Positions 11,415 through 34,507 of a DNA stretch of 64,000 nt are shown piece by piece; the stretch's first letter is position 1; each line of letters opens with the position of its first letter. Under the pieces are notes generated by a model. It saw only the letters and a list, made by a program, of their open reading frames with translations. It was not told the DNA's origin and ran no database searches. The stretch is taken from NCBI GenBank assembly GCA_051362555.1, contig CM120645.1:16244001-16308000 (forward strand), written 5' to 3'. The position numbers and the translations under genes are program-made. The DNA is from Lingula anatina (lineage: Eukaryota > Animalia > Brachiopoda).

Positions 11415-11834
11415 TCACACAGTAATTTCTTTTCGGTTCAGTAAATCCTGTATTCCATGCATCCGATCTTTGCAGTCTTTTATGGCTATTTCCCCGGAGA
11501 GACAAGCCCTCATGGTCTTCTCCCAATATGCCTCCAAGGTCGGATCCATTTTACCACTTTCAAACTTCAGAGGGAACTTGCCCCGCCTGATTCCAGCAGA
11601 AAAGACGCTTACTTCAAGATTTCTGTGAATTTTGTACGCATGTTCATTATGCCATATCTCCCACATCATGAGCCCAAGGGCGTAAATGTTGGCATCTGCA
11701 TCGTAAGGTTTGGTGCCAGCAAGGACGCTGTAGGGTAGATAAACCATAGACCCTATGGGGGAGTTGGGATCTGGGGGTGGCATCGTGACAGGTTTGCTGA
11801 TGTTCACTAACTTCACAGTTGTATCCCTCCCAGC
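11415..11834 (-). CDS. Coding exon 8 (last): pseudokinase C-lobe
   Basis: ttttatag|GCT acceptor. AGRDTTVKLVNISK...GSMVYLPYSVL...ADANIYALGLMMWEIW...TGA. The DFG position reads NIS and the APE position reads PYS. Confidence 0.88.
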   Translation of the reverse strand, partial: AGRDTTVKLVNISKPVTMPPPDPNSPIGSMVYLPYSVLAGTKPYDADANIYALGLMMWEIWHNEHAYKIHRNLEVSVFSAGIRRGKFPLKFESGKMDPTLEAYWEKTMRACLSGEIAIKDCKDRMHGIQDLLNRKEITV

Positions 11835-14800
11835 CTATAAAAAATATAAGAGATCGTTCAGAATGAATCTTGTCGCAAAAGCACTTACTCCTCGGGGACC
11901 CTCGCTGAATGCAATCAGATTAACAGACTAACACGCCTCCTCTTGACGATGAGTAAAATAGGGAGAATGAGTACGCCAGTCACGTTAGAAAAAAAGAGGA
12001 TTAAGCAAGTGCTACCGTGAAGTTAATGTGCATGAACTATTGCGACCTAACTCCCCTAAGTGAACAGGTATATGTGTAAACAGGTATGTGTAAAATTTCT
12101 AGTAATTTCCTTTACATATTACTAGGCGATTCTCCGTGCCACCATACAACTATATCTTTCTTTTGGAATACCATTACACATTACACACGGTCAATTCCAC
12201 AATGTACACCAGATTCCAGGACAATCCCCCCCCCCCGTCAATACCCCCCGGACAGCCCCCCACCCCCCCACCCCCCACCCCCGAGTTGAGTACAAGTAGA
12301 GAAAGTATTATTTAATATTCAATCAAAGTATAACCACATATTCTCCAGGTAAAGGTGGGGTAAACATATGAACAGTTTAACAGGTAAACATTTTTAATTC
12401 TATCTTTTTGTACGGCGGGAATTGAGTAGGTGGATAGTAGTCAATCAATTAAAAGTGACATATAATCAAAGGGATACCTGTATGAGTGAGAGAATCTGTT
12501 TACCCAACCTCTCCCTAGAGATGCAACTTGGTGCAAGGCTTACTTAATCAGGGGCAGGGGTTTAATTAAGCAATTAAAAGTAACACTTAATTCATCAAAA
12601 GGTTACCTGGATGTGTGAGATAATTTGTTTACCTCACTTTACCAGGGAGATATACTTTGATAAGATTTTTAATAAAATTTTCTTTATTTCTATTTCTGAA
12701 ATTTTCTGTACTTGTATTCCATGAAAATAATTTGTTTCATGAATTAAATATCTTCTATCTTTGAGTTGCATTATCACACTAAGAAATATTCATACAATAG
12801 ATGAAAAGATTTGAGTTTCATACTCTTTACTTTATATTTGAAAATAATTATATATTCTTCGGGGGGGGTGGGGGGTAGTCTGGGGGGGGGGAGATTGTCC
12901 AGGGAGGGAATGTCCGGGGGAATTGTCCGGGGAGATTGTCCTGATACCTGTACACCATATCTTGTACAAGGCTGTGGGTTCGCGACTGTTTATTTGTTTC
13001 TTGTAATGTTCTTTGCGCTCTATGTCAAAAAGCAACAAAATCAAACTAAATCACAAGAGAAAAGATAATTCAAGATAAAATTCGATATGTCTTTTTTATA
13101 TAAATACTCACGGTAATCATAACTGTATCCATAGACAAATCCAGACAGACGAAGCCATTCTTGTGCAGGTAGGCCAAGGCGTTCGCCAGTTGGATTAGAC
13201 AATCTATCGGTGCTTTGAGTAAATAATGTACCAGCTCATCCGGTAGGAATTTATGACTGAGCTTGCCTCTGCTGAGGACCCTCAAACTGGTCAAGCGCGG
13301 GTACATGATAAGAGCTGGCAGTTCGTTTGTTGGATCCAAATAAGTACCCAGTATGAAAGGAATGAATATCCTCTTTTGTTGCTTCATTTTTCTGGAAAAA
13401 ATAATTTGTCCTTGTGTTATGTCCTATTCAATGTATGATTAAGAAAGAAAAAACTGAACTGAAGTTAGCATAGAGAATGTTTAAGACAAACAAGAGTTAA
13501 CTTCTTATTTCTACACACCTCATTTCAATGATTTCCTCACGTACTCGCTTTTCACATGTAGCCCCTTCATATCGTTTTACAGATATTTGGAGGGATTGAC
13601 CCTTTGGAGTTTTTAAGATGGCAGAGAAAACTTTGGTCCAGTTCCCTTGATACGACAGTTGTCCTTTCACAGAATTGACGTCTTCTTTCACATCTGTCTC
13701 GTTAAAATCAAAAAGATGTGTAATAGAAAAATCGTCCAGCGCACTGTTAATTGTGGTAAACTTCTTGACGACAGGGTCATAGGTGTCGATAAGGTGATCC
13801 TGTTGTTCTAAAAGAATGATATTTTGAGTTGATGATATAAGCTGTGGGATGGACTCGCGCATCTTTTGCAAATGATCCCTGGCCTCTTCAAATTGGGCAT
13901 CGACAAAGGCTTTTGTGACATCACGCTCAGCCATTATTTTCAATGCCTCGGATGATCTGTCTCGAAGAAATTCACATTTCTTCTGGTCATATTGCTTTAA
14001 GATTTGTTTCTCTTTTCTCTTCATTACATGTTTTTTTACCTCACCAAAAAAAAATGCCGGTGATGCAAGAAGCATACCCAACGCACCAATGGGTAAAATG
14101 GTTGGTGAAAATAAACTGAGTGCAATTTTTTCACCTAGGTTAAAGTCTGTAATCGTCAGGTTGTTCACCTCATTTTCTATTAGGTCTTGTAATTCCATAA
14201 AGGCTGCCAAATCTCGTTCCCTGGAATCTGTTTCCGAAGACCTTTCCAACATGTTTTCAATCATGCGCAGCTCATATTCAATCAATTGGAATTCTATAGT
14301 GAATTTCTTGAACAAGTCTTTCTGCAGGGTTTCAAAATGTTTTTTCTCCATTTCCCAAGAGCTGATGGCATCAATGATTCTTTTAGAGATGGCATCTTCT
14401 ATTCTTCTTTCTAAATCGTTCCAACTACTCCCATAAGGAGCTTCGGCATTGGTCCAAGAGGTAACTCGGGCAAAGACAGGATCGCTGCTAAGATATTTAG
14501 ATAGAGAATCAGTTAGGATTTCACACTTATTATAAAGGTGGTCTTCTAGTTGGTTCAAAATTTCTTCCGACTTTTTCTCAAGTCTGTCCAACCGTTTCTT
14601 CTTTGAATTGTGCTGAGCCTCAAGTTCATCCCAAGTCAAATTGGCAGAGTTAAGGTACTGCTGGGCATAATCTATGGTGCGCTCTACCATACGTTTGCCC
14701 CATCTAAATATAAACATATGTCAAAATCTTACTTGATTGCTTCTCTTAGCAAGATCTTACTTGTATTATAAAAATATTTTATACAGCCCAAGATCTGGCC

Positions 14801-17800
14801 TAGAATCTTTACGATATATATATAAATTTAAACGTACACTACAACATTGGTCAAGGGGTTGTACCACTTAAATTTGACAGTATTTTTTCGTCATTTTCTT
14901 CATTTTTTGGATCATGACCTGTAAACATAAATGTCAAATCAATTTTACGGGGTAAGTTGACCCCTCCAAAATACAGGGTGAGACCTTGACAACTGCTCCA
15001 GAGATTGCAATTGCCTGAGCGGGCAGGAAACCGACATGGGTACCCGAACGCTTGTCACTTTTCAACCCTATAAAGCCTGGGTTTCGGTCTTGTACCTCAT
15101 CCTCCATACCCTAGACAACAACAGAAGTTATTTTATAAGAAACTCTGACAATGCCACGTGCAACAAGCACTGGGGTACGTAACAAGATGATTGCTTTTAG
15201 AGCTGCAGGCCTTACCCAGACAGAAATTGCCAGACGCCTTAGTGTATGTAGGAAAACAGTCACCGGGTCCTGAAAAAATGCTCTGCGTGGAAATATTGAA
15301 ACTGAAAGATCCACTTGTCGTCCACGAGCCACCACCCCTCGCCTGGACCGCACACTGCTCAACATTGCATGAAGAAACAGGAAATTGTCAGCCAGAACCA
15401 TTGCTTTGCAGTTGCAGGCACGCCGTTTGGTGATGATTTCTCGGGAAACCGTGAATCGCAGACTCCTGCAGTTTGGATGCAGATCCAGGCGTATGGCCAA
15501 GAAACCGCCACTAAGACCCAGACATGTCACGACACGGCTACGGTGGGCACGTAGGCATTGGAACTTGACTATCCATCACTGGAACGATGTTGTCTTTGCT
15601 GATGAATCAAAGTTTGTGCTGTACCCCACCGATGGGCGAATGAGTGGCCGTAGACTTGTTGAGGAACGTCTGTTGGCCGTGTGTGTGCAGGAAAATGTCG
15701 CCGGTGGTGGAGGGTCAGTTGTTGTTTGGGGAGTAATCCATGCCCATGGTCGTAGCAGATTGGTTCTTCTGGAACAGAATGTGAACGGGGCAACTTACCG
15801 TGACATTCTCGAGAATCATTTCATTCCCTTTGCCAGAGGTGACTTTCAGGACAATTTCAAACTGCAACAGGACAATTCCCTTGCTCACAATTGTCGTTTG
15901 GTGAAGGATTTTGTACAGAGGAGCAATATTCAAATGATGGAGCAACCACCTTTAAGTCCTGACGCCAACCCTTTTAAACATCTGTGGGATCAATTTGGGC
16001 GCGCGGTGCAAAGGAGAGACAACCCACCTACTAATCTGGATCAACTCTGACAAACACTCCAGGAAGAATGGGGAAATATCCCAGAAAACTCACTCGTGAC
16101 CCTTGTTGAAAGCATGCCGCGCCGCTTACAGGACATTATTACAGCACGTGGAGGGCACACGCGCTATCAGTCACGAAATTTTGATAGATTACATTCCGAT
16201 GATACTCCTTGGTGATATTTGGTGGTATATTTTCATTTTATGGGCATTTCTTTTGCGGCTGTACAGCATCTGTATTAGGACAGATTTGAGGAATTATGTG
16301 AAATAAATCCTAATAAATGTTAAAAGGTGTATTTATTTACACCAGTATTGTGTTCAATCGTACACTTGGTCACGTTTGATATCGGGATTAGAATAAAAAT
16401 AGCCATTTGAAATGGTTTACAGCTGTCATGCAATCATTTGTAAACATAAAAACATGCGATTTAGGGTGGGACAACCTTTTTGACCAATCTTGTACATTTA
16501 GATACGGGTTTAATATATCTCAATTTGGTGTCTTATTTCACAGAGGCACAGACTAATTTCGATAAAGTTTACTTGAATGCATGAATGAGTAAATAAATCT
16601 TAAACGCACCGGTGCGCATGTTCCGTCCTTCTTTGCAAACTCACTGGAATCAGGTCTTCGATGCCTCTGACTAGTCGCCTGTAGTCGCGAGTCATGTACC
16701 CAGCCTGACTGTGCTGCCACGCCTTTTTAGCAGAAAGCGTAAATATCTGCTTTGATGAATCCATGGGCCGGTTCCAGCCCTCACTCACTGCCAAACGCAC
16801 ATTCTCTAAAGCCTTTTCCCTTGCGTCCTCTGGCACTAGATCCCAGCGGTTGCAGACAAAAATAGCACAGCCAGGGTCAAATATTGGCTCTCCAGAGGTA
16901 TCCTTCATATCTTGAAGTTGCCGCAGCAATTTTTGGAGCTAGAGAAAGAAAACCAGAAAAGGCACATGCTATCTTACGGTTTTTACACACTTGAAATCGT
17001 TTTATTTAATCTCACATCTTCAAACGAGAAACAAAAGGCTATCACACATATTAGATTAAAAGGAACGTGTTTAAAGTGAGCTGAAAGCAATGTCTGAAAA
17101 CCAAAATAATTTTAAATAATAACAATTTAAAAATATTAAAGTCAATTTAGCAAAACAATATTATTTCTGACTGTTGGTGGCAACTTTCCTCTGCACATGA
17201 GAGCTAAAATAGTGGTATAATTAAGCGTTATTCATAAGCATTAGGCAGTTTTTTTTAATAACCTGTTTCTCAAGCTCCGCCGACCTCAAAATAGCCAAAA
17301 TAGAAAAAAAATACAATTGAAACCAAAAATATTTTTCTTTTTTCCCCGACTTCCGACTGATCCTACTGTTCGATCGTAAACACGAAACCTAACAAGTTTC
17401 ACGGGACTCCCGCGTCACATGACTGCCTACAAGTTCAAAACGAAGGGTATTTAAGCCAAAGTAAACGATTGGTTCATTTCCTCCAGCTTCCGGTTTTTAA
17501 GCCAATCAATGCTTCGCTGATATTTTACACTGCATGTGTCAAATTAATGCAACATGGCGGGAGACACATACTGGAGTAGCTGTCTCTACTAAGGCAGGAA
17601 ATTGACCACTGTTGTGTGGCTCAGTGTTATAGTGAAGGAAGGACCAAAGATATTATGCAAAAAGGTCTGTCCGGCCAGTATTACAGACGTTTTAGGCCAT
17701 TTTATTGACTGCTTTCTGTCAGAAATGAAAATATCAACTGCAACACTTTTCACGTGTGGAAGGTTTCAACAGGGAGCAAAAATAGGTTCTGAACTGAATG

Positions 17801-20800
17801 TTAGAATGCCGGTCACTACGGTGGTAGATATTGACATTAAGTGCATTCAGATAACAGTTGGCAGTGAACACCAAAAGATGCAGGCTCAACTTAACTCTCT
17901 GAGAACATCCAAATACAGAGCGCATGCAGCACTCGCGTAGGCCTACTTCTGAAAGTCTCCAGAAATGATGTGAGTATTTTTTTCCGTTTTATCAGTCTAG
18001 AGTGTCAAAGTTTTTAAAGGTGAATGTATTTCAGGCATTGATATGTTGGTAAATAAATGTCCTTTTTTGCACTTTCACAAAAACGTATGTTAAATGCTAA
18101 TTGCTCGCTCACAACAGCAGATGTTTCTATACTGAAGCAACATGTCTTTGACATTTTTTTTATTAAATTAAGGCAGGTAATAGCTGTAAACTATCAAGTG
18201 CTTTGGATAATGAGCCTGTCAACATGAATTCATAGTTCAATTAAGTTTTCCACCAAGTTTTTAAGGCGTATATAGATAAGTTTAACCAGGCCTGTAGCCA
18301 GCAATTTCAAAAGAGGGTTCTTTTTCTGAAAAAGTGAACCATTTACCATAAAACCTTCATGCACCTAGATCGATTTTGATCCAGAGCAGACCTTTTCCTG
18401 ACAAAAAGGGTGGATCATTCAATAATATGAAATAAGTTAAGTTGTTGCTGCCATTTAGATTTAATAAAAATTAAGACCACAGTTCCATAACAGGCCATAT
18501 TACCCTTGCTGGTTTTTGTATTTTCAACATTCTGGCTAAGCAATTGTTTGCTGTCTTTTGAATTATACAATTCCTATGCAACTAAGAGAAGTCACACATC
18601 CAACTCGGGTAACTTATCTGAAATATATATATATATTTTTTTAGTGAATCCCCAAGTAATGCAAGGCAGGCAATGTATAATTCCATCTCGCAAGTAGTGG
18701 AAGACTTCAATCTTTGTCTTCAGGCTGGACAGGCCAAAAATCTTGGAAAACGCATAGCAGAGACACTGACAGAGGAGCTACGGTATAGAAGCCCATATGC
18801 AGAGAGAGAGACTGGCTAGTTTAGTGCAGCTGCCATAGTGACCATTTAAGGAAGGCCATTTAACAAGATGATTCTCAAACTTATTGAAAGATTCAAAGGT
18901 CTTAAATATAGCCTGATTGGATTCTTTTTATGGAAGCAATGCTGTTTTTGTGAAATGGTCATTTTTCATATACATGTATTGGTGATTTCAGTGTGGGACT
19001 TGGAACTCACATGGGCATGAAGCCATATTGTTTCTGGATGGCCATGTTACATGAAGTAGATAATTTAAATTTGATGATTTTCCACTTAATCGTTAAATCA
19101 TACATAATATTGCATCAAGGTTGACAAAAAACTGTTTTGTGCACTGCCATCATGAATGCATAGAAAGACAAACTGTGATTTTTGTTTTGTAATTTACAAG
19201 AATGATTCATTGAATTGACATTCATTTAGACAAATAAAACATTGAAAATGAATTGCTGTTTTTATCCAAAAATTGCTATACTGTGTTAAAACCAGTATTT
19301 ACCATTGTCTAACGTAGTTTTGAAAATGAGTGACCAAAAAGTCATTATTTTGAAAAATATTTTTTTATTTTTCCCCCCTCCGACCTCTGACAAAAATAAA
19401 AATCGTTCGAGAAACAGGTAATTAAAAAAAAACTGCCTTATATGTACACTCTGATAAAAATGGAATATTTCAATGGAATACCACAACTGCCATGAAATCC
19501 CGCAAAATATATTGCTTATTAGTATATGACTGAATTATAAGTACAGTACATTTTTCTAACGGACTACTTCTGGTGACCAATTATGGCTTTGGTAAATAAT
19601 CGCCAATTCATTTGGAAAAGTTTATACCATGATCAAACTTGATCAATCTTGCCTCAGCTCATCCAGTGTAGTCGGCCAGAACTCTCTCCTTCTCGCAGCA
19701 CAGCTTAGAGCATCCCAACAATGCACTATGAAATTCAAATAAGGAGAAAAAGCAGGCTATTTGCCCCATTGGCCATTGATGAATTGTTGTGCTTTGTGAC
19801 GTCGATGGAGAAAGACCAAAATGGACTTAAGCAAGTCGCACCGCTTTTGTCGCGACGTAAAGGATGAATGCTGATAAGAGAGTAAAAGTCCCCACCTTTG
19901 TACATGAAAAATAGATTGTGAATGAAATTAAAAAATGATACCAAATTAAAATTAAGGTCTACACTTTTATGATCCACTGTATTTTTTTTAATTTCAAAAT
20001 GACCTTGCCAAATATTCATGAAAATGTGTGTTTTAGGGGGGTTCTGAAATACATTGCTACTTTTCTATAGTTGTAATAGGGTCACAACTGTGAAATATGG
20101 TAATTGGGAACAGAAAGTGCCAGTTTAAAAAAGGAGGCAGTAAGTGGTCATTCAATGCTTGTGATCAATATTTTGATTGCTTTATTCTTACATGTAGTGT
20201 TGATTGAAAGACTAATCACACAATGACTTGAGGATAAAAGATGTTCTTTTTATATGAGACCCTGCCTTAGACAAGCTTTCTTTCATGGTTGAAAAGACAT
20301 GTATATAAGGTGAGATATATTTGAAAATCAGTTTGCCTTATACCCCCGTCACATAACAGGCAGAATGAGCAAGAATGCCGTCGGAAAGACAATGCTTTGT
20401 GCATTCCTGGATATTCAAGGAGCATTCTAAAATTTCCCAGTGCATTTCAAATATTCATATACCATTTCAAAGGTACCTCAAATGATATACGAAGTGAACT
20501 CAAATGCAGTCAAAATGCTCCCAGTATGGCTGCCAATGATGGTTTCAAATATAAAGAATTCAAACAGAATGCAGTTGAAATATCTAAAACACTTAAAATT
20601 ACTTTCTAACATGTTTAGAATGTAACACGATGCCCAGAGTGTATAAATAATGCCACCGGAATGGTAACTGATCAGAATGTTCCTAATGCTGTTGGAATGC
20701 CGTTAGAACATTTAAAATGCAGTCATAGTGCAGTTAGAATACTGTTCAAATGTCATTCGATAATTTTCCACTTGGAATGCACTTCGAAAGTTTTTGACAT

Positions 20801-23800
20801 GAGCAAAACATTCGAGCCGGCCACAAGAATGGGTAAAAATATTTGGAATGCACTCGGAATTTTTAGCTCTTCGAATATCCAGGAATGCACAAAGAATTAT
20901 ATTTCCGATGCCATTCTTGATCATGCCACCTCAAGTGTGACTGGGGTATAAAATCCGCCAGAATGTTTCGAATGTGCCTCGAATGAGCTGAAATATTAAT
21001 TTAGAGAGCAACTGAACTACATAAGTACGCCATTCAAGGTATATTCTAAATATTCTGACTGCCTTCTGACAGCATTATAGATATTCCTAGTTTTCCAACT
21101 ACATTCGAACTGCATTTGAGAGCTAACACAGCCGAAAGTGCATTAATCATTCCAGGCGAATTCAAGCGCATTCTGCGTATTCCAACGGTTTTCTTACAAG
21201 AATTAAAGCAATAATAACTCTTCCTTTGAGATTCAAAATTCTCATCAGTTAAAATATCCATCAGTTAAAATCTCTTAAGAGATTTTAACAAAAAACCAAG
21301 CGTTTAGGAAAAAAAACCTGGACTACCTTTGAATGCAGGAATGGGGTCATTTGCCGTTGGTTTGTACGGTAAAATTACCGTTTACGCCAGGAAAATCCTA
21401 TTTTTGTCCAAAACGAAGAGTTATTATGACTTTAAGGTCAATTTCAACTTTTTCCCGAATGTGGTGCGAATTTTGAAAATTCTTCATTCAGGCTCATTCT
21501 GCTTGATCCCTGCTGATTCCGAATAAGTGTGACGGGAGCTTTAGGGTTGGGCTTGTTATCTACTCAAAATTGTATGGACATTTTCAGTCAATATGCTAGA
21601 AGCCGACCATGTATATTCCTGCCATGGGGTAGCTGCTACGTAACATGGTTACATGCGATGGCTAGACAGATAAACTGAATCTTTTGTTCAAAAAGAACAA
21701 CCCTAAAAGCCATAGGTCTTTGAAAGGGAAGCAGGGGTCAGAATCAGTAAAATATTTTCAGTTGCAAGCAGAAATAGAAAATTCATTTGCATGTAATGCA
21801 TGCTATCAAAAAGGGAAAGTATGCATGAGAAATGGAGTCTAAGACTGGGTACCCATGCCTAGATGGATCCATGATGGATCCAAAGGAAATATATAGGAAA
21901 TAGTTTATATATTTATATATATATGTGTGTTTTGGGCAGCACATCTGATTTTAATATATATTAAGTCCAAACATTCAGAATTTATACACATTATCTACAG
22001 GGAATCTCTCTGCATGCCACAGTGGCAGCAACTTATTTAAATACTAATTGCAATGCAATAGATAACAAGTGAGTGAAAGTTATATCAGTTCTACTTATCA
22101 GGTATACCTATACAGAGGATGATAAATATTCATTCAAGACTGAAGTAAGGTGAATGATAATATGCTGTTCGAATGTAGTTGGAAAACTAGGAATATCTAT
22201 AATGCTGTCAGAAGGCAGTCAGAATATTTTGAATATACCTTGAATGGCGTACTTATGTAGTTCAGTTGCTCTCTTAATTAATATTTCAGCTCACTCGAGG
22301 CACATTCGAAACATTCTGGCGGATTTTATACCCCAGTCACACTAGAGGCGGAATGATCAAGAATGGCATCGGAAATATAATTCTTTGTGCATTCCTGGAC
22401 ATTTGAAGAGCTAAAAATTCCGAGTGCATTCCAAATATTTTTACCCATTTCTGGCCGGCTTGAATGTTTTGCTCATGTCAAAAACTTTCGAAGTGCATTC
22501 CAAGTGGAAAATTATCGAATGACATTTGAACAGTATTCTAACTGCACTATGACTGCATTTTAAATGTTCTAACGACATTCCGACAGCATTAGTAACAATC
22601 TGATCAGTAACCATTCTGGTGGCGTTATTTATACACTCTGGGCATCGTGTTACATTCTAAACATGTTAGAAAGTAATTTTAAGTGTTTTTAGATATTTCA
22701 GCTGCATTCTGTTTGAATTCTTTATATTTCAAACCATCATTGGCAGCCATACTGGGAGCATTTTGACTGCATTTGAGTTCACTTCGTATATCATTTGAGG
22801 TACCTTCTTACATACTTCAGCCTGTATTCGACCAGCAGTTAAACCAAACTCGTAAGGCATTTGAATTTCATTCGGAATAATCTGACTGCTTTCTAAGAAC
22901 ATCCACAATATTCCTACAGTATTGCAACTACAATTTGAAATTACCTCCCGATTATGGCACGAATTTTTCAATTAATTTCTTCCAACTGGTTCTGCTGGAT
23001 TCCTGCTGGTTCCGAATAAGTGTGACGGGGGCCTTAAATCACGTGCCATTTCGAATATCCCTCGAATGTGATCAGAATGTTTCGACTGTTGCCAGAATGC
23101 AGTGAGAATATTTAAAATGCAGCCATAGTGTACCCTGTAGTTAGAATACTATTCAAATACCATTCAATAATTTTCCACTTGGAATGCACTTCGAAAGTTT
23201 TTAACATTCGGGCCGACCACAAGAATGGGTAAAAATATTTGAAATGCACTGGGAAATTTTAGAATGCTCCTTGAATATCCAGGAATGCACAAAGCATTGT
23301 CTTTCCGACGGCATTCTTGCTCATTCTGCCTGTTATGTGACGGGGGTATAAGGCAAACTGATTTTCAAATATATCTCACCTTATATACATGTCTTTTCAA
23401 CCATGAAAGAAAGCTTGTCTAAGGCAGGGTCTCATATAAAAAGAACATCTTTTATCCTCAAGTCATTGTGTGATTAGTCTTTCAATCAACACTACATGTA
23501 AGAATAAAGCAATCAAAATATTGATCACAAGCATTGAATGACCACTTACTGCCTCCTTTTTTAAACTGGCACTTTCTGTTCCCAATTACCATATTTCACA
23601 GTTGTGACCCTATTACAACTACAGAAATGTAGCAATGTATTTCAGAACCCCCCTAAAACACACATTTTCATGAATATTTGGCAAGGTCATTTTGAAATTA
23701 AAAAAAATACAGTGGATCATAAAAGTGTAGACCTTAATTTTAATTTGGTTTCATTTTTTAATTTCATTCACAATCTATTTTTCATGTACAAAGGTGGGGA

Positions 23801-26800
23801 CTTTTACTCTCTTATCAGCACTCATCCTTTACGTTGCGACAAAAGAGGTGCCTTGCTTAAGTCCATTTTGGTCTTTCTCCATCGACGTCACAAAGCGCAA
23901 CAATTCATCAATGGCCAATGGGGCAAATAGCCTGCTTTTTCTCCTTATTTGAATTTCAAAGTGCATTGTTGGGATGCTCTAAGCTGTGCTGCGAGAAGGA
24001 GAGAGTTCTGGCCGACTACATTGGATGAGCTGAGGCAAGATTGATCAAGTTTGATCATGGTATAAACTTTTCCAAATGAATTGGCGATTATTTACCAAAG
24101 CCATAATTGGTCACCAGAAGTAGTCCGTTAGAAAAATGTACTGTACTTATAATTCAGTCATACACTAATAAGCAATATATTTTGCGGGATTTCATGGCAA
24201 TTGTGGTATTCCATTGAAATATCCCTTAAATCACGTGCCATTTCGAATATTCCTCGAATGTGATCAGAATGTTTCGACTGTTGCCAGAATGCCGTGAGAA
24301 TATTTAAAATGCAGCCATAGTGTACCCTGTCGTTAGAATACTATTCAAACGCCATTCAATAATTTTCCAATTGGAATGCACTTCGAAAGTTTTTAACATT
24401 CGGGCCGACCACAAGAATGGGTAAAAATATTTGAAATGCACTCGGAAATTTAAAAATGCTCCTTGAATATCCAGGAATGCACAAAGCATTGTCTTTCCGA
24501 CGGCATTCTTGCTCATTCTGCCTCTAATGTGACGGGGGTATAAGACAAAGTTGGTTCGTGGGCGCGGGTTGCTAGCAGGGTACGGCAGCATTTGGTACAA
24601 CGTTATCACATACGGTAGGTGAAGAGTGTAACGTCGTACTGCAATGAGATTCATCACGTCGACTTCAAAATTCATCCTCTTTAGAATAAATAAACAGTCC
24701 CGGGTGTTGGCATAAAATGACTCCAGTTGTACTCGGTCTCGGTCCTTGATTGGCGGGCCTTCTGTCACACGTTTTATAAATGATCAAGCCACTAGCGATC
24801 CATGTCCAAATCTGCTTTTTAGCGCCTTAAAGCTACGGCATAAGCTGCTCCGTCAATTCCATAACCTTAAATGTGCTGCTTTACTAAACCTGTTACGCTA
24901 AACTGGAGAAGCCACATACGTCGATTGTCTTTGAAATAGGGTTGTTTGTGACTTGCGCGTAAAACAACGCTGCAAATCGTGGCCAATCAAGGGCTTATCC
25001 GCTGAATTGGGATCCGCTATTGAAGCTCGGGATGCGTACTTTTCTAGCATACATCAGAAAAGCAATTATTCGTAAGTCTTTTTTGAATGTTCATTAGACG
25101 TAAGTAAAACCGTCTGATAATATGGTTTGAGCTCATCTATCCATGCGTCCATTGGTTTTGGTGTCGCAGTAGGTGACACGAAGGGCTCTTGGACTGGCTT
25201 CGGGAGTTCTTTATTTACGTGATTAATCTCGGAAATTTCCCGTCAACAGTCAGCACACGTTTCTATAATCTGAGATAGTCTATGGGTGTTTGTCGTTTCT
25301 TCTTGAATCAACTGCTCTTAATACTAGTTTTGTGAAAGAAGCGAGGCGCCCCGTTCTTACGGCTTTCAATCTTCTCTCCCCCATGCCGTTGGTGTTGATA
25401 TCCGGCTCGCGAGACCAAATGTTGAGGATGTTATCGGATATTTAAAACAACAAGAGTAAAAATGAAATAAATAAATAAATAATAATTTAATGTGACGCAA
25501 ATAAATGTACAAAGATGTTGAAAAAATATAAATAGAAAATTGCTGCTATTAAGTCACTAAGCTATGGGCTGGTGGATCGTGCCGCAGCTGTCGGGTCGTG
25601 CCGTGGGCTGCTGAGGCGAGGTACTGCTGAGCCGAGGAACAGTAGACCGTGACACTGCTGTCGGGTCGTTAGCCGTAGGCTGCTGCGACGAAACGTAAAA
25701 AAAACACTAAACAAAAAGTTGAATAAAAATAGATATAAATGGAAAGTTGATGCCATTAAGTCACTAAGCTATGGGCTGGTAGATCATGCCGCTGCTGTCG
25801 GGTCGCTGAGACGTGGCCGGTAGACGGTGCGCTGTTGACTGCTCAGACGAGGCCGCTGAGACGTGACCGGTAAACGGTGCGCCGTGGACTGCTAAGACGA
25901 GGTACTGATGACCCGAGGAACGGCAAATCGTTCCGCTGCTGTGGGGTCGTGAGCCGTAGGCTGCTGAGACGAGGTACGGCTGAACCGTGGCAGGTTAATC
26001 GTGTCGCTGCTGCTGGACCGAGTCGCTGAGGCGTGGAAGCTCATGTGGAAGATAAGACTGGGCAGTAAAAACTGCCCAACTTATATATGTGCAGCTGGTG
26101 GCAAACTGCTCCTCTTCGGAAGAGTTAAAAAACGATGGGCACTTTGCCAAAGGTTACCAGCACTCCAGCCCCCGTCTACCAGCCCCCGTCACACTTATTC
26201 GGAAACAGCAGGAAACAAGGGAAGAAATTTCAAATTGACCTAAATTCTTGTAAAAATGCCGTTGGAATACTCAGAATGCGCTTGAATCCGCCTGGAATGA
26301 TTCGTGCACATTTTGGCCGTATTAGCTCTCAAATGCAGTTCGAATGTAGTTGGAAAATTAGGAATATCAATAATGCTGTCAGAATGCGGGCGGAATATTT
26401 AGAATACACTTCGAATGTAGTACGAGTGTAATTCGATTGCTGGCTGAAATAGGATCGAAATGCATTCGAGTTGCATTCCGACTCATTCTAGCAGGATTTG
26501 AAGTGTATTGCCATTTCGGTTCTCCCTCGAATGTAATCAGAATGTTTCGAATGCTATTGGAATGCCGTGAGAATGTGTAGAATGCAGTCACGGTGCAGTT
26601 ACAGTGATTATTCAAATGCCATTCGATAATTTTCCACTTGTAATGCACATTGAAAGTTTTTTAACATGAGCAAAACATTCGGACTGGCCACAAGAATGGG
26701 TAAAAATAATTGGAATGTACTTGGAATTTGTAGAATGCTCTCTAATATCCAGGAACGCACAAAGAACTGTCTCTCCGACGGCATTCTTGCTCATTCCGCC

Positions 26801-29800
26801 CCTAGTGTGACGGGGGTATTAGACACTTTTGCTTGGTCACATGATGGTTCGACCTTCATAATGACTGAAACTGAATACGACTACCACCGTTGGCAAGCTC
26901 TCACCCAAATGTCTTCAGCAAACCTATCCCAAACAGGGCCGTAGCCTGAGTAAAATGCCGGGGGGGGGGGGGGGGGCAGTAAGTGGTCACGAGGGGGCGA
27001 AGCCCCCGAGGGGGGAAGGTGGAAGGTGGAGGGGGGAAGTGTGGACATTTTTTAAAAAGTGTATGTATATTACTGCATTCTGGTCCATTTTAACTGTTAT
27101 TTATTGGTCAATCAGAAGGCAGAAATTGTGGGTTCATTTTGCCATAAGTACATTCATTTTTTCAACACAACACGCCAATTGGCCTGGGGGATAGCTCCCT
27201 CAGGGAGGGTGAGCTTTTTGGCATGAACTGAGTTGGCTAAAAACAGTACACCTTTGTAAACAGATTGTTGAATGATTGTCTAGTGGCCATGAGTGCCTTT
27301 TCTCACAGAATTGATACTTTGCAATTATTTTTTTTTACCTTTGCGATTATTTTTCTTTGCACCCCAATTTACAGGGGGGGCAGCTGCCCCCCCCCCTGCC
27401 CCCCCGGAGGCTACGGCCCTGCCAAAATTGACATCGAACAAGAAGAATTATGGACACCATGAACAAGTAGTTTCATTTCATTAGAAAACCAAACATGCAC
27501 CCAGTGGCGCACTTGAAAGTAACGAAGAGTCCATTTTGGCGGGAGGTTTTCCCTCTGTTGGGTGGAGAATTTTTCTTATAGGTATTTCTTGGCCCTAGTC
27601 ATTCAGGAGTCTGCTAAAAGTCTTTTTTGGGACTGGTTGTTACCATTTGGCCTACTGAGAAAAAGCTGGCAATCTCGCAGAGTATGCAATACTTCCAGGT
27701 TGTAATCCTAGGGGAAAACCACTGCCGACGCCTAATCACACATATTTCTTTGACCGCTGCCGGTGGGTGACATAACGGTTGATTGGTTCAAACGGAAACA
27801 GCAAAAAAAAACCTTCTGTTTCCGACCAGACAGTACATCCAGAAAACTCACCAAGATCTTTTAGTCGAAACTGTGCCAAGCTATAACTGCACTGGACAAA
27901 GCTGACTTGCAACCATAGCACCATAGGTTAGGTCAAAAAGCTCATGTGACCCATTACTGTGAGGAGATGTGTTGCATTGGCATGATTTAATCAAATCCAA
28001 TCTACCACTGTGTATTAAGAAGGTATTCATGACAGTTATGCCACTATTTAGTGAACTTAATTAGCGGACACTTCAGGAAGTTCATGTTCACTACGCAAGG
28101 TTTTTTCGCAACTTTAAGTATGTTCACTTGAATAATTTTTAATCAATACACACTCAAAAATGTTTTGATGCAATTTTGTCAGGGGAAAACTGCACATGTG
28201 TATTGCCTGGAGTATTATTGGAAAATCGAGAAAACCATAAATACAATATGAGTGGAGAAACTTACTGCATTCAGCTTACCCTATCTTCTTGCACTCCGCC
28301 TGACTTATCAGTCATAATGACGTAAATGAAGGCAAAGACGTCATTGTTGGCAATGAAGTTAAGAACCACGTCATCCATGACACCACTTTCACCAATACCA
28401 GGGCTGTCGATGATATACACACCACTCTAAGGGTATAATACAATTTTGTTTATGTATTTTGTGGATACTTAATGCATCTTACCTCAAACAGAAAGTTTGA
28501 AAATTTTCATTTGAAATTATTGCATGTATATACCAGTACCCAATTAAGTTTCATGTCACAATTCCACATGTCGAACTCTAAGAAATATGGCCTGACTTCA
28601 TGAAATACTACATTACCTTTAACAGCTCCAATGGCAAATAAACATCGACCATGCACTTTTTCGGTTCACCCTCCCTTGCTGCACCCTTAGGGAATAGATC
28701 ACGCTCCAAAGCCGAGCACAAATCATCAGGGTTCTTTACTTCTACCTGTTTTTGCTCGCCGTCAGGTTGTTGTACCAGAACTTTAGGTTCTTCCCCATAC
28801 TTTATTCTTGTGATCGCAGCTGTACAGCTTAAATGGGCTTCCGGTAGGATTTTCTTGCCAAGGAGAAGGTTCAAAAAGGTGCTCTTCCCCGAAGAAGTTT
28901 CGCCTTGAATGTGAAAAAGTTTGTTAGAGAAAATAACATTATAGAGCCTTCATATCACATTGGTAACAATGCCTTGACAAAGCACAACATAAAATACATG
29001 GATGTACTGATAACATAATGCAAATATAGAAAAAATAAAAAGTTAATAAAAAATGAACGACCTAATCGAGAAACACGCGAGTATATGGGCAAAGAAAAAA
29101 TGCTGCAATGAGTAACCCAACTATTTTCTGACGATAACACAGTGAGCAAACATCCATAATTTTTTGTTAATTTATCGCAATCCATTCATAAAAGAAATAT
29201 AAAAAGTTACCCGTTAATGTGTAAAAAAAAATAATTTTTGGTAATGTATCATTACTTCTGAGCTCAACAGTGTATACAATGACATACAGAGTTGACATTT
29301 AATATGGAGTTTTTCGCTTTTAAAGGTATGCCTACGTAAAAATGCTTACTCCCACCTCATATCAGATATGTGAAAGGAGAAGTGTGTAGTCAGGTGTGTG
29401 GATAGCAATTAACCGACAAGGTTGCACTGCTGAGGTCGTCTGGTATGCAGTTATTTAATTGGGAAGTGCTCCTTTTGTTTTACAGAAGTGTTAAAGACAT
29501 ATAATGCTAGGCAGATTACTGCGCCAGAAGAACGGTCCTCACAGTTTTATAGAGTAATGCCCAGACTAAAGTACCTGCACAGAGGCCACACCCAATGTAT
29601 CACCAGAATTAGGACTCACTTTCCTTCCAGATATGCTGCTGCAAGTAAACAAAAGACCACCCATTCCGTACAGAATAAGAGACAAAATGCCACCACAACG
29701 TCTTTTTCCAAGGCCCTTTGCGCACATCAATATTGTTTTAGCAGGTTATAATACCAGACAACCTCTGAGGAAGCCACTGTAAACAGCAGAACGTCGTCGT

Positions 29801-32800
29801 CTACTTCTCTAATGAATAGGGGACCATGGCCGTTTCTGGGTAGAACACTGAAGGCTTTCTTATAGAGGTCATATTTCACCTGTACCACTCAACTAGTCAA
29901 AACAGAGTTTACAGACATCTAGAAGAGGCTTATGATGAAAGCGTGTGCGGCATGTAAAGTGACCAGGGTCATTGACATCGTATTTGGCGGATACCACACT
30001 GCTGCCAAAACACCAATGGTAGTCATCAATGAAAACCTGAACCAGATCAAATAAAGGGAATCTGGGAATTACTTGACTATAATTTGAAAGGGGCACCTAA
30101 GGAACAATTTTAGGTTGCGTGATGAGATTGCCGGTTCACACATAGCACGTCTCATAGCAGATAGCGTACAGAAACAAGGGAATGAGCAGCTACATTGGTC
30201 ATCAAAATCATCAGGTTTGAACCACACAGACAATGTGTGGGTGAGTCATTACACGCCGAATCAACGATCTACATGTCCTGCAACAAAATGAACCAAATCA
30301 GACAAGTTTTGACCGATGCCTGAAATGTTATACCAGATTAAACTCTAAAACCCTATTCCAAGAAATGCCTCGCCGCTTGAGAGCCCTGGTGGTAGCCTGA
30401 TGAGATCAGGCGTAACTGCGACCGTTTCTGTGATTAGACACTGATATGAGGGTCCTTTGTGGGCCGTATAACTCTTTTACAGATGATAATTTGATAAATA
30501 TGGAGATCCAAAATATCGGTTTTAATGGTTGCCGTATGACTTATAATGGTCATAGTATTTTGTTTGCTTCACTGACGAATTCAATTAATGAACTGATGTC
30601 ACAAGAACACCAAAGAAATAATTAAAAGTTATTAAAACACGATTTTAATCCTTATTTTCATTTATCAGTCAGAAAAATAGAATACTGATGAAAACTGATT
30701 TGGAAAAAATATTCCAATTTAGATGTCAAGTCTGTATAAGCAGAGGACGAGTACTAACTGGCCGATCATTTGATTATAAACATTGACTTATTTGATTGAT
30801 AACTCCTACCTGCGACAAGTATTGGACAGTTGCCAGTTTCGAGCATGTCGATCCTCTTTTCTACGCTTATTTTTGCGTTCTCAGCTACAATATTCTCTGC
30901 TTCCAGTCTCTTTAAAATGTTCGGGTCAAGTAACGGTAGGGACTCCTTAATGGTTTTAAGGATCGACTGAAGTGCAATTCTTCTTTGTTTGTCATTTTCT
31001 CGTAATTCAGTGAAAACATCAGCAGCCTAAAGTTATAAATATATATATATATAAAGTCACTGTTCTATTTTATTATGATTTTGTGTGCACGTTCTTAAAG
31101 CCCCCATCACACTTATTCGGAATCAGCAGGAATCAAGCAGAACCAACCGGAATGACTTAATTTAAAAAATTCGTTTTACATTCGGGAAAAAATTCAAATT
31201 GACCTAAATTCTTGTAAGAATGCCGTTGGAATAAAGTCAACATGCGAAGGGACAAACTGAATAAGTCACTCGATCAGCCATAAAAGAGCTTTAGACTGCA
31301 ATTTTCTTAATTATACTGTTTGAAACTATTTGCTGGCATTTGGTTGGTTTTTGTGGCAAAAAATTGACTTTGTATGCATCTTTAATAGGCCTATTTTAAA
31401 TGGAAGGAAGGACACCAAGCATTCGAGGAGGCTGCTCCATGCCTTCAACAGCTCCACACGTTTACAAAGGGAAGTGTTAAAGATTCATACAAAGTCAATT
31501 TTTTGCCACAAAAACCGACTAAATGCCAGCATATGATTTCAAGTAGTAAAATTAAGAGAATTGCCAAAAGGCATTGTTTAATATTACCCGAAAATGATGT
31601 TTGAACGAATTTTTTATGCTAGCATCTATGCTGTATATCAATAGAGCAGAAACGTAGGTCACGGAAGTAGGTTCAATTTCTGACCAAAAAATTCAAGAGC
31701 AGCCTAAAGCTCTTTTATGGCTGATCGAGTTATCTATTCAGTTTATCCCTTGGCATGTCGACCTTATTTGAGACGTATAAGAAACTAGTAGAAATGGTTT
31801 ACATGTGTTACAGGGAATCCACGCTCCACCGATGCTTGGTTCATATGTACCTTTAATTAATAATCCAAATAACAAAGAACGTTTTCACGACGTTATCAGA
31901 TGGTAAAATGCTGGAAATGGTATAGATGAACATTATGGTAACGCTATGGCTGTTTTTAACTCCATGCAAAATGATGTATAGTTACGTTATAATTTGTAGA
32001 AAGATTCAAAGACCGTTTCTACAAAATTTTATAATAACATTATTTTGTGGAGTTTTATCACCATCAGCATTTATATAATGTTTTGAAAAGCTTTTTATTT
32101 TTATAAATAATCAAAACTCGTCTTATTTTGTTTAAACTACAGTTAGCGGTTAAAATGGGCTTGGGTGGTCGGCGACTAGAGTGGTGCGAATTGTAGAATA
32201 TTCGGACTATCGGTACCGTAATAACCAGCATGTGACGTAAGCTTAAATAAACAATTTTATAAATACCCCACCATCACCATCATTACTTCCGGAAAAAAAT
32301 AAATAGACATCAATACCGTAACGCATTTTATCAGAATATGAAAAAAGGTGTTTTAAAATAAAAGTGAATGTTATTTCGCGTCTTTACTGAACTAGTGAAC
32401 TTTCCTATCTTGTTTTTCAGGAATACATTCCAATAAACCTCCTCGCAGGGTCAGCTAGCACAAGGATGAATAAGTTCAGCTGTAAAGATGATGATGTGAA
32501 GTCAACGATGTTGACAGTTCACGGTACCCTGTTATAGATAGAGATAGCTATAGCAGTTAAAGGTGACCATGACTGTGTGCGTGTGTGTGTGTGTGACTAA
32601 AACAGTTGAAACCCTTAGCACCTAAAAGTAAAACAAATACACCCTACATTTATTAGGCATCAAACACGTCATACTGATAAAATACATTCGGTCTAAAAGC
32701 GTGTAACATGTTAAGGAGCTTAACGTGCTTAGGAGCTAAACGCGTCAAAAAAATGAGACAAAATAGGCGCTTAGAAATGTGTTTAGGAGCTAAACACTGT

Positions 32801-33687
32801 TTTCACAATGTAGGATCGAGATGCATTCGAGCTGCATTCCAGCTCATTCTAGCAAGATTTGAAGTGTCTTGCCATTTCGATTCTCCCTCGAATGTGATCA
32901 AAATGTTTCGAATGCTGTCGGAATGCCGTGAGAATATTTAGAATGCAGTCATAGTGCAGTTAGAATACTATTCAAATGCCATTCGATAATTTTCCACTTG
33001 GGATGCACTTCAAAAGTTTTTAACATGAGCTGTTTTAACAAGAATGGGTAAAAATATTTGGAATGCACTTGGAATTTTTAGAATGCTCTTCGAATATCCA
33101 GTAACGCACAAAGAATTGTATTTCCGACGGCATTCTTGCTCATACCGTCTCTAGTGTGACGGGGGTATTAGTAGTTGACTTTATATTTTTAATTACAATA
33201 CCTCTCAAATCTAAAATGTAGATAGACCTCAAATATTACTCATAATGATGAAGTTATAATAGTAAATGTCGCAATATGGTTGTTTTCGTGTGTTTGCGTG
33301 TGTTTGTGTGTGTGTGTCTACATCTGCATCTTGAAACTATATGACAATATTACAGAACGCACTGAAATGATGAGATAATTTGTGAATGATTATGTTCCTT
33401 TGAAGAACTTAAAACATACACGTATATGTTTACGATACAAACGATGGAATTTGAGGATCCATACAAGAAAAATACAATCCAAGAAGAAAATATATATACT
33501 ATACCTTTTCCATCCTTGTAATTTGAGAGTGTTTTGCCTCAAAATGTAAGCAAAGCCTCTCTTTTAGATCTTGTAGATCTTCAATGTCGTCAGTGTATAT
33601 ATTTAAACCAACGCAAATACGAAAGCCATCCTCTAAGTCTTCCAAAGACTCGATGGTGTCTGGGGTTATGTCACTTACGTTAGCCAT
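11415..33687 (-). CDS. Dynamin-like (mitofusin/BDLP-type) GTPase - pseudokinase fusion protein, DSTYK-like architecture, 8 coding exons, about 1015 aa
   Basis: Exons 33687-33505, 31026-30810, 28903-28617, 28426-28280, 16938-16610, 14703-13519, 13391-13112 and 11834-11415 join with GT-AG sites and matching phases (0,1,0,0,2,2,0) into 3048 nt with no internal stop. G1 GETSSGKST, G2 LSCT, G3 DSPG, G4 NRWD, G5 LSAK, then a degenerate kinase fold. Confidence 0.88.
12212..12948. mobile_element. Mutator-like (MULE) non-autonomous element in intron 7
   Basis: 9-bp TSD tgtacacca at 12203-12211 and 12949-12957. Ends gattccaggacaatcccc / ggggagattgtcctgatacc with short subterminal ggacaa/ttgtcc repeats. 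Confidence 0.8.
13112..13391 (-). CDS. Coding exon 7: pseudokinase subdomains IV-VIb
   Basis: ttccag|A acceptor, ACC|gtgagt donor. IQLANALAYLHKNGFVCLDLSMDTVMIT, where HRDLKxxN is replaced by CLDLSMDT. Confidence 0.88.
13519..14703 (-). CDS. Coding exon 6: helical stalk, hydrophobic hairpin and kinase N-lobe
   Basis: 1185-nt open exon. Coiled-coil-rich, with hydrophobic IALSLFSPTILPIGALGMLLASPAFFFG and then QGNWTKVF...QISVKRY...EEIIEM. The donor ATGAG|gtgtgt was chosen because it is the only nearby GT giving the phase needed by exon 7. Confidence 0.88.
14842..16492 (+). mobile_element. Tc1 (DD34E) DNA transposon, full length but defective, in intron 5
   Basis: Imperfect ~27-bp TIRs caacattggtcaaggggttgtaccac / gtgggacaacctttttgaccaatcttg, flanked by TA on both sides. 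Confidence 0.9.
15151..16167 (+). pseudogene. Tc1 transposase pseudogene
   Basis: MPRATS...TQTEIARRL helix-turn-helix, VVFADESKF, LQQDN, SPDANPFKHLW (third catalytic E replaced by K at the D34 spacing), SMPRRLQDIITARGGHTRY. Frameshift/stop near 15270 and premature TGA at 16048. Confidence 0.9.
16610..16938 (-). CDS. Coding exon 5: GTPase G4/G5
   Basis: ttctctag|CTC acceptor, CG|gtgcgt donor. AIFVCNRWD and IFTLSAKKA. Confidence 0.9.
17244..19437. mobile_element. Non-autonomous DNA transposon with TTA target duplication (PIF/Harbinger-like)
   Basis: TIR ggcagttttttttaataacctgtttctc / gagaaacaggtaattaaaaaaaaactgcc, with TTA on both sides (17241-43, 19438-40). Subterminal ccgac motifs. No intact ORF. 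Confidence 0.75.
19465..24222. repeat. Long inverted repeat in intron 4 (arms ~19465-21110 and ~22168-24222, ~1.05-kb spacer)
   Basis: 19465-20462 is the reverse complement of 23228-24222, and 20471-21110 of 22168-22805. Near-identical ORFs appear on opposite strands (19735-20019 and 23604-23930). Confidence 0.9.
24544..26180 (-). mobile_element. BEL/Pao LTR-retrotransposon relic (gag/DUF1759-like fragment plus repetitive upstream region)
   Basis: Minus-strand frames give QFSG*ALDWPRFAALFYAQV and SFIKRVTEGPPIKDRDRVQLESFYANTRDCLFILKRMNF, which resemble BEL gag. A ~208-bp internal duplication (25548/25756) and gctgagacg repeats lie upstream. No LTR found. Confidence 0.55.
26181..26818. mobile_element. 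Full-length copy of the dominant GAAT-rich MITE family (TIR CCCCCGTCACAC, TWA target)
   Basis: agcccccgtcacacttattcgg ... ctagtgtgacgggggta. Related copies or fragments lie at ~20341-21540, 22170-23350, 24224-24543, 31098-33167, 44851-44930, 46531-47192 and 55560-56684. Confidence 0.8.
26934..27421. mobile_element. hAT-like MITE with 5-bp TSD
   Basis: TIR cagggccgtagcc / ggctacggccctg, with CCAAA duplicated at 26929-33 and 27422-26. G/C-run subterminal regions. Confidence 0.75.
28280..28426 (-). CDS. Coding exon 4: GTPase G3 (not in the ORF track)
   Basis: cccttag|AGT acceptor, AGG|gtaagc donor. SGVYIIDSPGIGESGVMDDVVLNFIANNDVFAFIYVIMTDKSGGVQEDR. Confidence 0.9.
28617..28903 (-). CDS. Coding exon 3: GTPase P-loop and G2
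   Basis: cattcaag|GC acceptor, AAG|gtaatg donor. (G)ETSSGKSTFLNLLLGKKILPEAHLSCTAAITRIKYG...VDVYLPLELLK. Confidence 0.92.
29276..30745 (+). mobile_element. Second, highly degenerate Tc1-like element in intron 2
   Basis: TIR remnants catacagagttgacatttaatatggagttttt / aaaaatattccaatttagatgtcaagtctgtat. Relic motifs WSSKSSGLNHTDNVW (~30195-30240) and EMPRRLRALVVA (~30362-30398). Confidence 0.65.
30810..31026 (-). CDS. Coding exon 2: helical region preceding the P-loop (not in the ORF track)
   Basis: aactttag|GCT acceptor, GCAG|gtagga donor (phase 1). AADVFTELRENDKQRRIALQSIL...KRIDMLETGNCPILVAG joins exon 3 to make ILVAGETSSGKST. Confidence 0.9.
31098..33167. mobile_element. GAAT-rich MITE copy expanded by nested insertions, including a hairpin element at ~31231-31768
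   Basis: TTA-aagcccccatcacac ... gtgtgacgggggta-TTA. The nested element has inverted arms ctcgatcagccataaaagagctttag / ctaaagctcttttatggctgatcgag and an inner inverted pair at 31331-31383 / 31478-31531. Confidence 0.75.
33505..33687 (-). CDS. Coding exon 1 (start codon; N-terminal acidic helical module)
   Basis: gcaATGG start, in-frame TGA upstream (33730-32), splice acceptor ttttag| at 33738 and AAG|gtatag donor. MANVSDITPDTIESLEDLEDGFRICVGLNIYTDDIEDLQDLKERLCLHF. Confidence 0.78.
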
Positions 33688-34507
33688 TGCTACTAACGCC
33701 TCATATCTCCGAGTATTAGGTGTTTTCGGTCATTTACCTAAAATGATAAAGCGTGTAAATGGGTCTATGTTTAAAAGAGAAAAGGTACTAATATCTGTGT
33801 CTAAATTAGATTAAAAGATTTATACACCTCCCACTGGCCTTGAAACAAATACAAAAACGCTGGTGATTATACGAGCACGTTGGAAACAAAAGTAAGGCGC
33901 GTTTATCTCAAATAGCAAGCTTGAGTGGAGAAAATGGAGAAGCTCAAGGTCTAAAAACTGGAGAGGATGAGAATGAGGAAACACATCCAAATACACAAGG
34001 TGAAACAAATGTGAAAGAGCCCTATGAAGAGACAAGCACGAAACCAAGACATGAACACGAAGAGACAGATAGGGCATTGAATACCCCCATCAAACTACCA
34101 AAAAATGTACCTACAGCAATAACAGCATCCAAGCAGTCATTTTTGCTGAAGGCTGAATCAGTCAAGCAGAGATGGTCAGATAATTGGACTGAGAACCTTA
34201 AATCTATAAACAAAGCCCTTGTCAATTTGGAGGCCAGCCAGACAGAACTCATTAAAGTCTTACAGACAAACAATGAGAGACGAAGCACTGAGAACAAAGA
34301 GATGAGAGATACTATCAAGCAACAGGCAGAAAATATAAACAATCTGAGAGATACTGTCAAACAACAAACAGAGAAGATAGACAGTCTCACCCTTCAGAGT
34401 AATCTGCTGCAAACGGAGTTGAATGAAATGAAGAAAATTGTTAAAGAGAATGTGGAAAGGAATGGAAAGAAAGAGCATCCTGTAACACACTCAAACTCTC
34501 AAAAAAT

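Follow-up and report, generated by a model that had tools for sequence, protein, structure and literature searches.

A 64,000-nucleotide stretch of the brachiopod Lingula anatina genome (assembly GCA_051362555.1, contig CM120645.1, forward-strand positions 16,244,001 to 16,308,000; hereafter the window) carries on its minus strand an eight-exon gene encoding a dynamin-like GTPase joined to a C-terminal kinase fold and, close to its start, what is likely the tail of a related gene on the opposite strand. The exons of the window gene and its one hydrophobic segment are as follows, numbered from the first letter of the window.

Exon 1, 33687-33505, minus strand: residues 1-61, holding the start codon and an N-terminal module of three helices with helix-extension-helix likeness (SAP/LEM/Rho-N type).
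Exon 2, 31026-30810, minus strand: residues 62-134, neck helices ahead of the GTPase domain; 18 reads span the joint to exon 3.
Exon 3, 28903-28617, minus strand: P-loop GETSSGKST and switch I LSCT, Dynamin_N at 1.5e-12; RNA joints at both ends.
Exon 4, 28426-28280, minus strand: G3 motif DSPG; 33 reads span the joint to exon 3.
Exon 5, 16938-16610, minus strand: G4 motif NRWD, LSAK and the end of the GTPase domain; joint to exon 6 in 7 reads.
Exon 6, 14703-13519, minus strand: long helical stalk followed by the hydrophobic tip, the return helices and the N-lobe of the kinase; RNA joints at both ends.
Exon 7, 13391-13112, minus strand: degenerate catalytic loop, with CLDLSMDT replacing HRDLKxxN; RNA joints at both ends.
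Exon 8, 11834-11415, minus strand: pseudokinase C-lobe and stop codon; joint to exon 7 in 18 reads.
Hydrophobic stalk-tip segment, 14126-14043, minus strand: residues 581-608 (28 residues), a predicted membrane paddle.

Splicing of the eight exons yields 3048 nucleotides encoding 1015 amino acids with no internal stop, and all seven introns have GT..AG borders. The motif GETSSGKST ends at 28878, its first codon being split by intron 2, with LSCT at 28832-28821, DSPG at 28408-28397, NRWD at 16851-16840 and LSAK at 16737-16726, in keeping with an earlier annotation made from the DNA letters only (the initial annotation), which had proposed eight exons, a protein of about 1015 residues and these same motifs. 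Pfam searches of single exons gave Dynamin_N on exon 3 and weak kinase matches under the cut-off on exons 7 and 8. All eight exons are matched in order by a RefSeq protein of the same species (LOC106174708, hereafter P0001) with 83% identity over 1027 columns, the window protein being 12 residues shorter with the segment at residues 681-690 replaced. Identity between the two copies is 89% in the GTPase domain, 90% in the kinase C-lobe and 69-83% elsewhere, with exon 4 the most conserved exon (48 of 49 residues the same).

Raw RNA reads of the same species were mapped on the window, to which they are mostly 90-95% alike. Joints at the predicted sites were found for five of the seven introns, four with the read counts given above and that between exons 6 and 7 with 31 reads; none was found for exons 1 and 2 among the joints listed, and both this junction and that between exons 4 and 5 are backed by the full-length match to P0001. 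The initial annotation had placed the GTPase and kinase exons in one gene, and since exons 5-8 are joined by reads and full-length relatives exist, two separate genes were rejected. Among 80 of the 1311 differences between reads and window, 46 are exonic, affecting 21 codons synonymously and 23 non-synonymously. P0001's residue is carried by the reads at 21 of the 23 non-synonymous codons examined, indicating that they report expression of this sister copy and not of the window copy, such that the predicted junctions were borne out, but by transcripts of a copy about 83% identical. The sister copy is present at low depth in the polyA RNA of several runs.

P0001 has a Dynamin_N domain above cut-off (3.6e-20), and its six Pfam families at E <= 0.05 include no match to GED, GBP, Roc or COR. 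A structure model was made for P0001, as the 83%-identical sister, from a 26-row alignment (predicted local distance difference test score, pLDDT, 75.8; predicted template modelling score, pTM, 0.59), running in order from three short helices at the N-terminus through the neck helices, the GTPase domain and a long trunk to a low-confidence tip, return helices and a two-lobed kinase fold made up by the C-terminal 290 residues. Foldseek with this model placed the bacterial dynamin-like protein BDLP (2j69) first (E 5.5e-18, template modelling score 0.55 of the target, 744 columns), followed by IniA, MFN2, MFN1, Fzo1, SynDLP and the Campylobacter pair, with mitofusin-type matches at E 3e-11 to 1e-9 and kinases from rank 35. 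The best sequence match was also BDLP (E 8.8e-12), the mitofusins matching weakly (E 0.004). By domain and modelled fold the window gene is thus a dynamin-like protein (DLP) of BDLP/mitofusin type, the layout that the initial annotation had read. Residues 581-608 at the stalk tip reach a best 19-residue Kyte-Doolittle mean (KD19) of 1.83 and are followed by a basic stretch (seven Lys or Arg in residues 609-628).

The kinase domain of the window protein retains the beta-3 lysine (K764), the alphaC glutamate (E781) and the catalytic aspartate (Asp867) and has lost the glycine loop (no GxGxxG), the Lys and Asn of the catalytic loop, the DFG Asp, which is replaced by Asn, and the APE motif. On these residues the domain is a pseudokinase that cannot alone be a working signalling kinase, and an active kinase was rejected because the catalytic motifs are lost. 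Of the kinase fold with a signalling or sensor role in the initial annotation, the fold stood, in the P0001 model, and a signalling role of the domain working alone needed correcting. The same degenerate pattern is common to 42 other rows of the family alignment across phyla; in the dead-kinase branch the DFG Asp occurs in none of 43 rows and the catalytic Asn in two of 43, with conserved substitutes of the ELSxDT/KLxxxPR type. Recent decay of the kinase was rejected on account of this old and widely shared pattern. It also weighs against the family being real but the window copy a silent or decaying duplicate with an eroded kinase, as do the open frame of 3048 nucleotides, the canonical splice sites and the excess of identity to P0001 in the GTPase domain and kinase C-lobe over the remainder. 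The lack of reads of the exact window copy among the codons examined, its loss of 12 residues and replaced segment relative to P0001, and introns enlarged by transposon remnants would fit such a duplicate, which is nonetheless considered very improbable.

The related gene at the start of the window was first noticed as a tblastn side match at 304-468, and two of its exons are recognised.

Neighbour, second-last exon, 238-480, plus strand: kinase segment with intact DVG, APE and DMY..G, Pkinase at 6.5e-15, 80% identical to P0192, splice sites present.
Neighbour, last coding exon, 1550-1717, plus strand: kinase C-terminus and stop codon; tblastn of P0192 gives 66% identity at 1529-1711.

P0192 is Lingula LOC106174710, a protein of 1017 residues with Dynamin_N and an active kinase whose gene is on the same 335,094-bp contig as that of P0001. 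The neighbour is therefore likely to be the tail of a dynamin-kinase with intact kinase motifs. It is convergent (tail-to-tail) with the window gene, 9.7 kb lie between its end and the stop of the window gene, and inspection by eye of open reading frames (ORFs) of at least 70 residues revealed no evident coding gene between 1717 and 11415. A second Lingula pair shares one contig, LOC106163465 (dead by its place in the tree, a partial model) and LOC106163463 (active). The two pairs branch in parallel, dead with dead (support 99-100) and active with active (100), at 37% and 35% identity respectively, and sister relationships of similar depth in both classes are what duplication of the pair as one unit would produce. 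Dead and active members also have consecutive identifiers in amphioxus (BRAFLDRAFT_81322/81321) and in a scallop, on one chromosome (XP_069141270/271-272), so that the pairing apparently recurs across the brachiopod, amphioxus and scallop genomes.

A further Lingula model, P0014 (LOC106164177), is chimeric, its first 567 residues being 59-71% identical to the active P0192 and its last 139 residues 77% identical to the dead P0001, with the switch point at an intron position common to both classes. Either the model wrongly joins parts of another dead/active locus, or the tails have truly been exchanged, as would follow from inversion in a tail-to-tail pair.

The family counts 105 clusters when representatives at 50% identity are searched at E <= 1e-30, with named members from brachiopod, amphioxus, hemichordates, bivalves, gastropods and nemerteans, together with one cnidarian-dominated Atlas cluster; no vertebrate, insect or nematode name occurs among the named matches. 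At least nine family loci are named in the draft Lingula annotation, consistent with the little-studied invertebrate family anticipated initially and showing it to be multi-copy, and members are mislabelled in databases as TEC, NEK7, MAP3K and Fer kinases. A motif census of 103 rows of 780-1400 residues divided them into 45 active, 50 dead and 8 without an aligned kinase, the GTPase motifs G1, G3 and G4 being intact in 48 of the 50 dead and 43 of the 45 active rows. For a larger FastTree set 19 rows were added and the 8 kinase-less rows and 3 fragments dropped, and the tree from its kinase columns places 43 of 48 dead rows on one branch (support 100). A more careful tree of 41 rows used GTPase and stalk columns with the kinase columns left out; in it the 19 active rows fall on one side (82/98) and a core of 12 dead rows from brachiopod, amphioxus and molluscs forms one branch (95/96), with a single clade of all 19 dead rows not rejected (approximately unbiased test, p-AU 0.35), which falls short of proof. 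Relatives from brachiopods, amphioxus, hemichordates and molluscs share the dead-kinase state as one old branch, and given these trees of dead and active rows across phyla the dead class is likely to predate the protostome-deuterostome split.

P0118, P0119 and P0145, which have active kinases, form a separate outgroup branch. The cluster of P0118 holds JGI/IMG genes of 896-971 residues on contigs of up to 14 kb, labelled RIPK5, and possibly comes from an intron-poor eukaryote; it has no relatives in viral contigs and one distant piece (27%) in metagenome contigs. A scan of prokaryote genomes with the active-class alignment returned ordinary kinases only, and as it used a generic kinase pattern on one of 64 parts it has no bearing on bacterial relatives.

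Taken together, a membrane machine of two proteins may be at work here, in which the window gene provides the protein with the dead kinase and the adjoining paralogue, with intact kinase motifs, provides the other; it would act, we infer, in cell-autonomous defence, a reading held tentatively and at a little under an even chance. The predicted hydrophobic tip would insert into a target membrane. By analogy with known systems, GTP-driven assembly of dead and active proteins through their tips and G domains would then join the kinase domains, with the pseudokinase either gating the activity of its partner or serving as its substrate and switch, and the purpose could be to coat, repair or rupture a membrane that is damaged or holds a pathogen and to couple this to a phosphorylation signal. 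In the Campylobacter DLP pair GTPase activity and lipid binding are gained only on assembly, and fusion-type DLPs are often heterotypic pairs (PMC6104087, in part; sources so marked are cited from the portion or supplement available). A broader version, possible but doubtful, is that a bacterial-style DLP pair with one live and one dead kinase arose before the protostome-deuterostome split as a sensor-effector assembling on infected or damaged membrane, remodelling it and giving a kinase signal only on co-assembly; this cassette would have been duplicated and lost in brachiopods, molluscs, hemichordates and amphioxus, and DSTYK would be a GTPase-eroded cousin kept by vertebrates.

An immune role for the window gene is something we infer with genetic hints, namely copy turnover, fast divergence and presence/absence variation. 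In the amphioxus B. belcheri, PF00350 is enriched among dispensable genes (7/31, false discovery rate 6.7e-6), and 41 of 100 animals lack the dead-class member LOC109464110 (PMC12373286 supplements, in part). Absence from part of a population is frequent among defence genes. Elsewhere bacterial DynA delays phage lysis (PMC8844932, in part) and DSTYK phosphorylates STING at late endosomes (PMC11933320, in part).

Two further observations concern amphioxus. LOC109464099, in the row before LOC109464110 in S1 File (rows 336-337), is missing from 73 of 100 animals, among them all 41 without LOC109464110 (PMC12373286, in part). The consecutive, opposite-strand B. belcheri models 003820R (Nek7) and 003830F (Mitofusin-2) co-move by about 10 log2 units over lipopolysaccharide time points (PMC5731807, in part); their labels fit an active and a dead member, the sequences being unchecked, and the swing could stem from presence/absence differences between the animals.

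Several points weigh against a paired defence machine. To the silence of the window copy in the reads may be added that only two exons of the neighbour lie within the window, the rest being before its start, and that adjacency elsewhere rests on consecutive identifiers and a shared contig, not coordinates, with orientation taken from the window alone. Only 4 of the 29 dead-class records with names have a documented dead/active adjacency. The FastTree from GTPase and stalk columns unites only 38 of 48 dead rows (support 97), with six changes of class label, and the paired dead gene of amphioxus has no firm place in two trees. The tip is poorly modelled (P0001 residues 546-622, pLDDT < 50), and 23 of the 50 dead rows and 21 of the 45 active ones have a tip of KD19 >= 1.6, which is mostly absent from the branches of the scallop pair; with a hydrophobic tip in about half of its members, membrane insertion is not universal in the family. 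The 28-residue hydrophobic segment seen initially was upheld in the sequence, its hairpin form being a prediction. In B. floridae the PF00350 enrichment is slight (2/21, fold 1.08) and includes other dynamins (PMC12373286 supplements, in part), and neither infection induction nor pathogen restriction has been shown for any verified member.

Same-class neighbours occur too (LOC144871209/210; ACJMK2_017072/076), so tandem arrays alone could keep the two classes linked. Linkage would then be an array by-product and the proteins lone homo-oligomeric defence GTPases, in which the dead kinase acts as a scaffold or as a decoy sensing pathogen kinase inhibitors or effectors. This account, judged unlikely, is also compatible with the full GTPase motifs kept in both classes, the fast divergence of copies outside the GTPase domain and kinase C-lobe, and the presence/absence variation of a dead-class member. 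The parallel branching of the two Lingula pairs and the dead/active neighbours in three phyla, however, exceed what arrays need, and nothing resembling a coding gene lies between the two members of the window pair, within the limits of the inspection described.

The family could instead serve membrane traffic or organelle shaping as a housekeeping GTPase-kinase of endosomes or lysosomes, resembling DSTYK and expanded in marine invertebrates without immune function. In keeping with this, DSTYK clusters are its nearest named look-alikes, DSTYK is located at late endosomes (PMC11933320, in part) and the sister copy is detected at low depth in polyA RNA. Copy-number turnover and 17% protein divergence between near copies would, however, be unusual for a housekeeping gene, as would 23 non-synonymous against 21 synonymous codons among those examined, and the absence of a member from 41 of 100 amphioxus; vertebrates, insects and nematodes are missing from the named matches. 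This explanation is judged unlikely.

A dead/active pair offers a concrete design, in which fusion-type DLPs work as a heteropair and have the kinase switch built in, within a large animal family of dynamin-like GTPases that is mislabelled in databases and apparently undescribed. No published description of the family or the pairing was found in the literature searched, which largely excluded subscription journals; the available portion of PMC11789081 mentions neither kinase nor DSTYK, that of bioRxiv 2026.08.17.745176 deals with Mx only, and PMC6697025 (in part) gives a mussel transcript labelled DSTYK/RIP5, of unverified identity, as tolerised after Vibrio. If the paired reading is true, it would give shellfish and basal chordates a further branch of cell-autonomous defence, link bacterial anti-phage dynamins by architecture to animal immunity, and predict a dynamin-like membrane module in the N-terminal region of DSTYK.

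The N-terminal module encoded by exon 1 is common to both dead and active classes (27-row alignment). Modelled alone it reaches pLDDT 86, and its VIA structural neighbours include the C-terminus of T4 endonuclease VII, Rho-N, CDNF/MANF, SAP and LEM (Z 5-6, best 6.0), with many helix-extension-helix chains in the top 25. Foldseek gave no match at E <= 0.001, there was no usable Atlas match, the profile search returned designed repeat proteins only and no Pfam family was common to two of the 27 members, so that the resemblance to a SAP/LEM/Rho-N-like helix-extension-helix module is a lead only. Neither this module nor the adjoining active-kinase paralogue figured in the initial annotation.

The remaining features of the window are largely repeats and transposon-related sequences, and an Rfam search of the 64 kb gave no match.

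Tc1/mariner transposase remnant, 15373-16050, plus strand: inside intron 5, with HTH_Tnp_Tc3_2 and DDE_3.
Harbinger-type transposase frame, 36013-37155, plus strand: open over 380 residues, DDE_Tnp_4 at 3.6e-24, upstream of exon 1.
Nested inverted repeats within intron 4, 19462-24225: outer arms, roughly 1 kb long and 98-99% alike (I1, I2), enclose inner arms of some 0.65 kb (I3, I4, I12).
Open frame of 242 residues, 33867-34595, plus strand: one half resembles a coiled coil, and no Pfam family matches above cut-off; it lies immediately upstream of exon 1, on the other strand, and probably derives from a transposon.
Element of about 2 kb in two similar copies, 49449-51311 and 59106-60699: near-identical ORF translations.
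Exact tandem duplication, 40987-41604: 318-nucleotide spacing.

The inverted repeats of intron 4 have more copies across the window and resemble nested miniature transposons.

Among known systems the mitofusins MFN1/MFN2 and Fzo1 are alike in GTPase and neck fold, whereas the window protein ends in a kinase fold and belongs to a multi-copy, fast-evolving family; a mitofusin orthologue was rejected, as the kinase fold stands in place of the membrane anchor and HR2. Mx and GBP are large GTPases of cell-autonomous defence and ROCO proteins join a GTPase to a kinase, and membership of these groups was rejected because P0001 has no GED, GBP, Roc or COR and its fold is of BDLP/mitofusin type. DSTYK (Dusty, RIPK5), a single conserved gene, had been named initially as the closest animal architecture, and DSTYK clusters are indeed the nearest named look-alikes by language-model features (score 0.91, 208/256 features), but they form clusters separate from the window family, including a molluscan one of their own, with no Dynamin_N listed. 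DSTYK is alike in its long helical N-terminal region, C-terminal kinase, length and endomembrane/innate-immune link and differs in being catalytically active (PMC11933320, in part), the window kinase being dead. Similar length and features, and the label RIPK5, a DSTYK synonym (PMC9573974), on the JGI outgroup cluster, would suit a plain DSTYK orthologue; with a multi-copy family, Dynamin_N present and a dead kinase, the window gene can hardly be credited as one. The bacterial proteins Nostoc BDLP (2j68/2j69), Campylobacter DLP1/DLP2 (5owv) and Mycobacterium IniA (6j72) are alike in GTPase-neck-trunk order, predicted hydrophobic tip and side-by-side gene pairs, such gene pairs being known to hetero-oligomerise (PMC6104087, in part). 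The window gene differs from them as an animal, spliced gene with an N-terminal module that may be SAP/LEM-like and a C-terminal kinase fold, and the members of its pair differ from each other by a dead as against an active kinase. Pairing of a dead kinase fold with an active relative is familiar from JAK JH2/JH1, KSR/RAF and MLKL/RIPK3, of which MLKL links its pseudokinase switch to an attack on membranes; none of these is fused to a dynamin-type GTPase, whereas in the window pair both partners are predicted to have the GTPase and the stalk.

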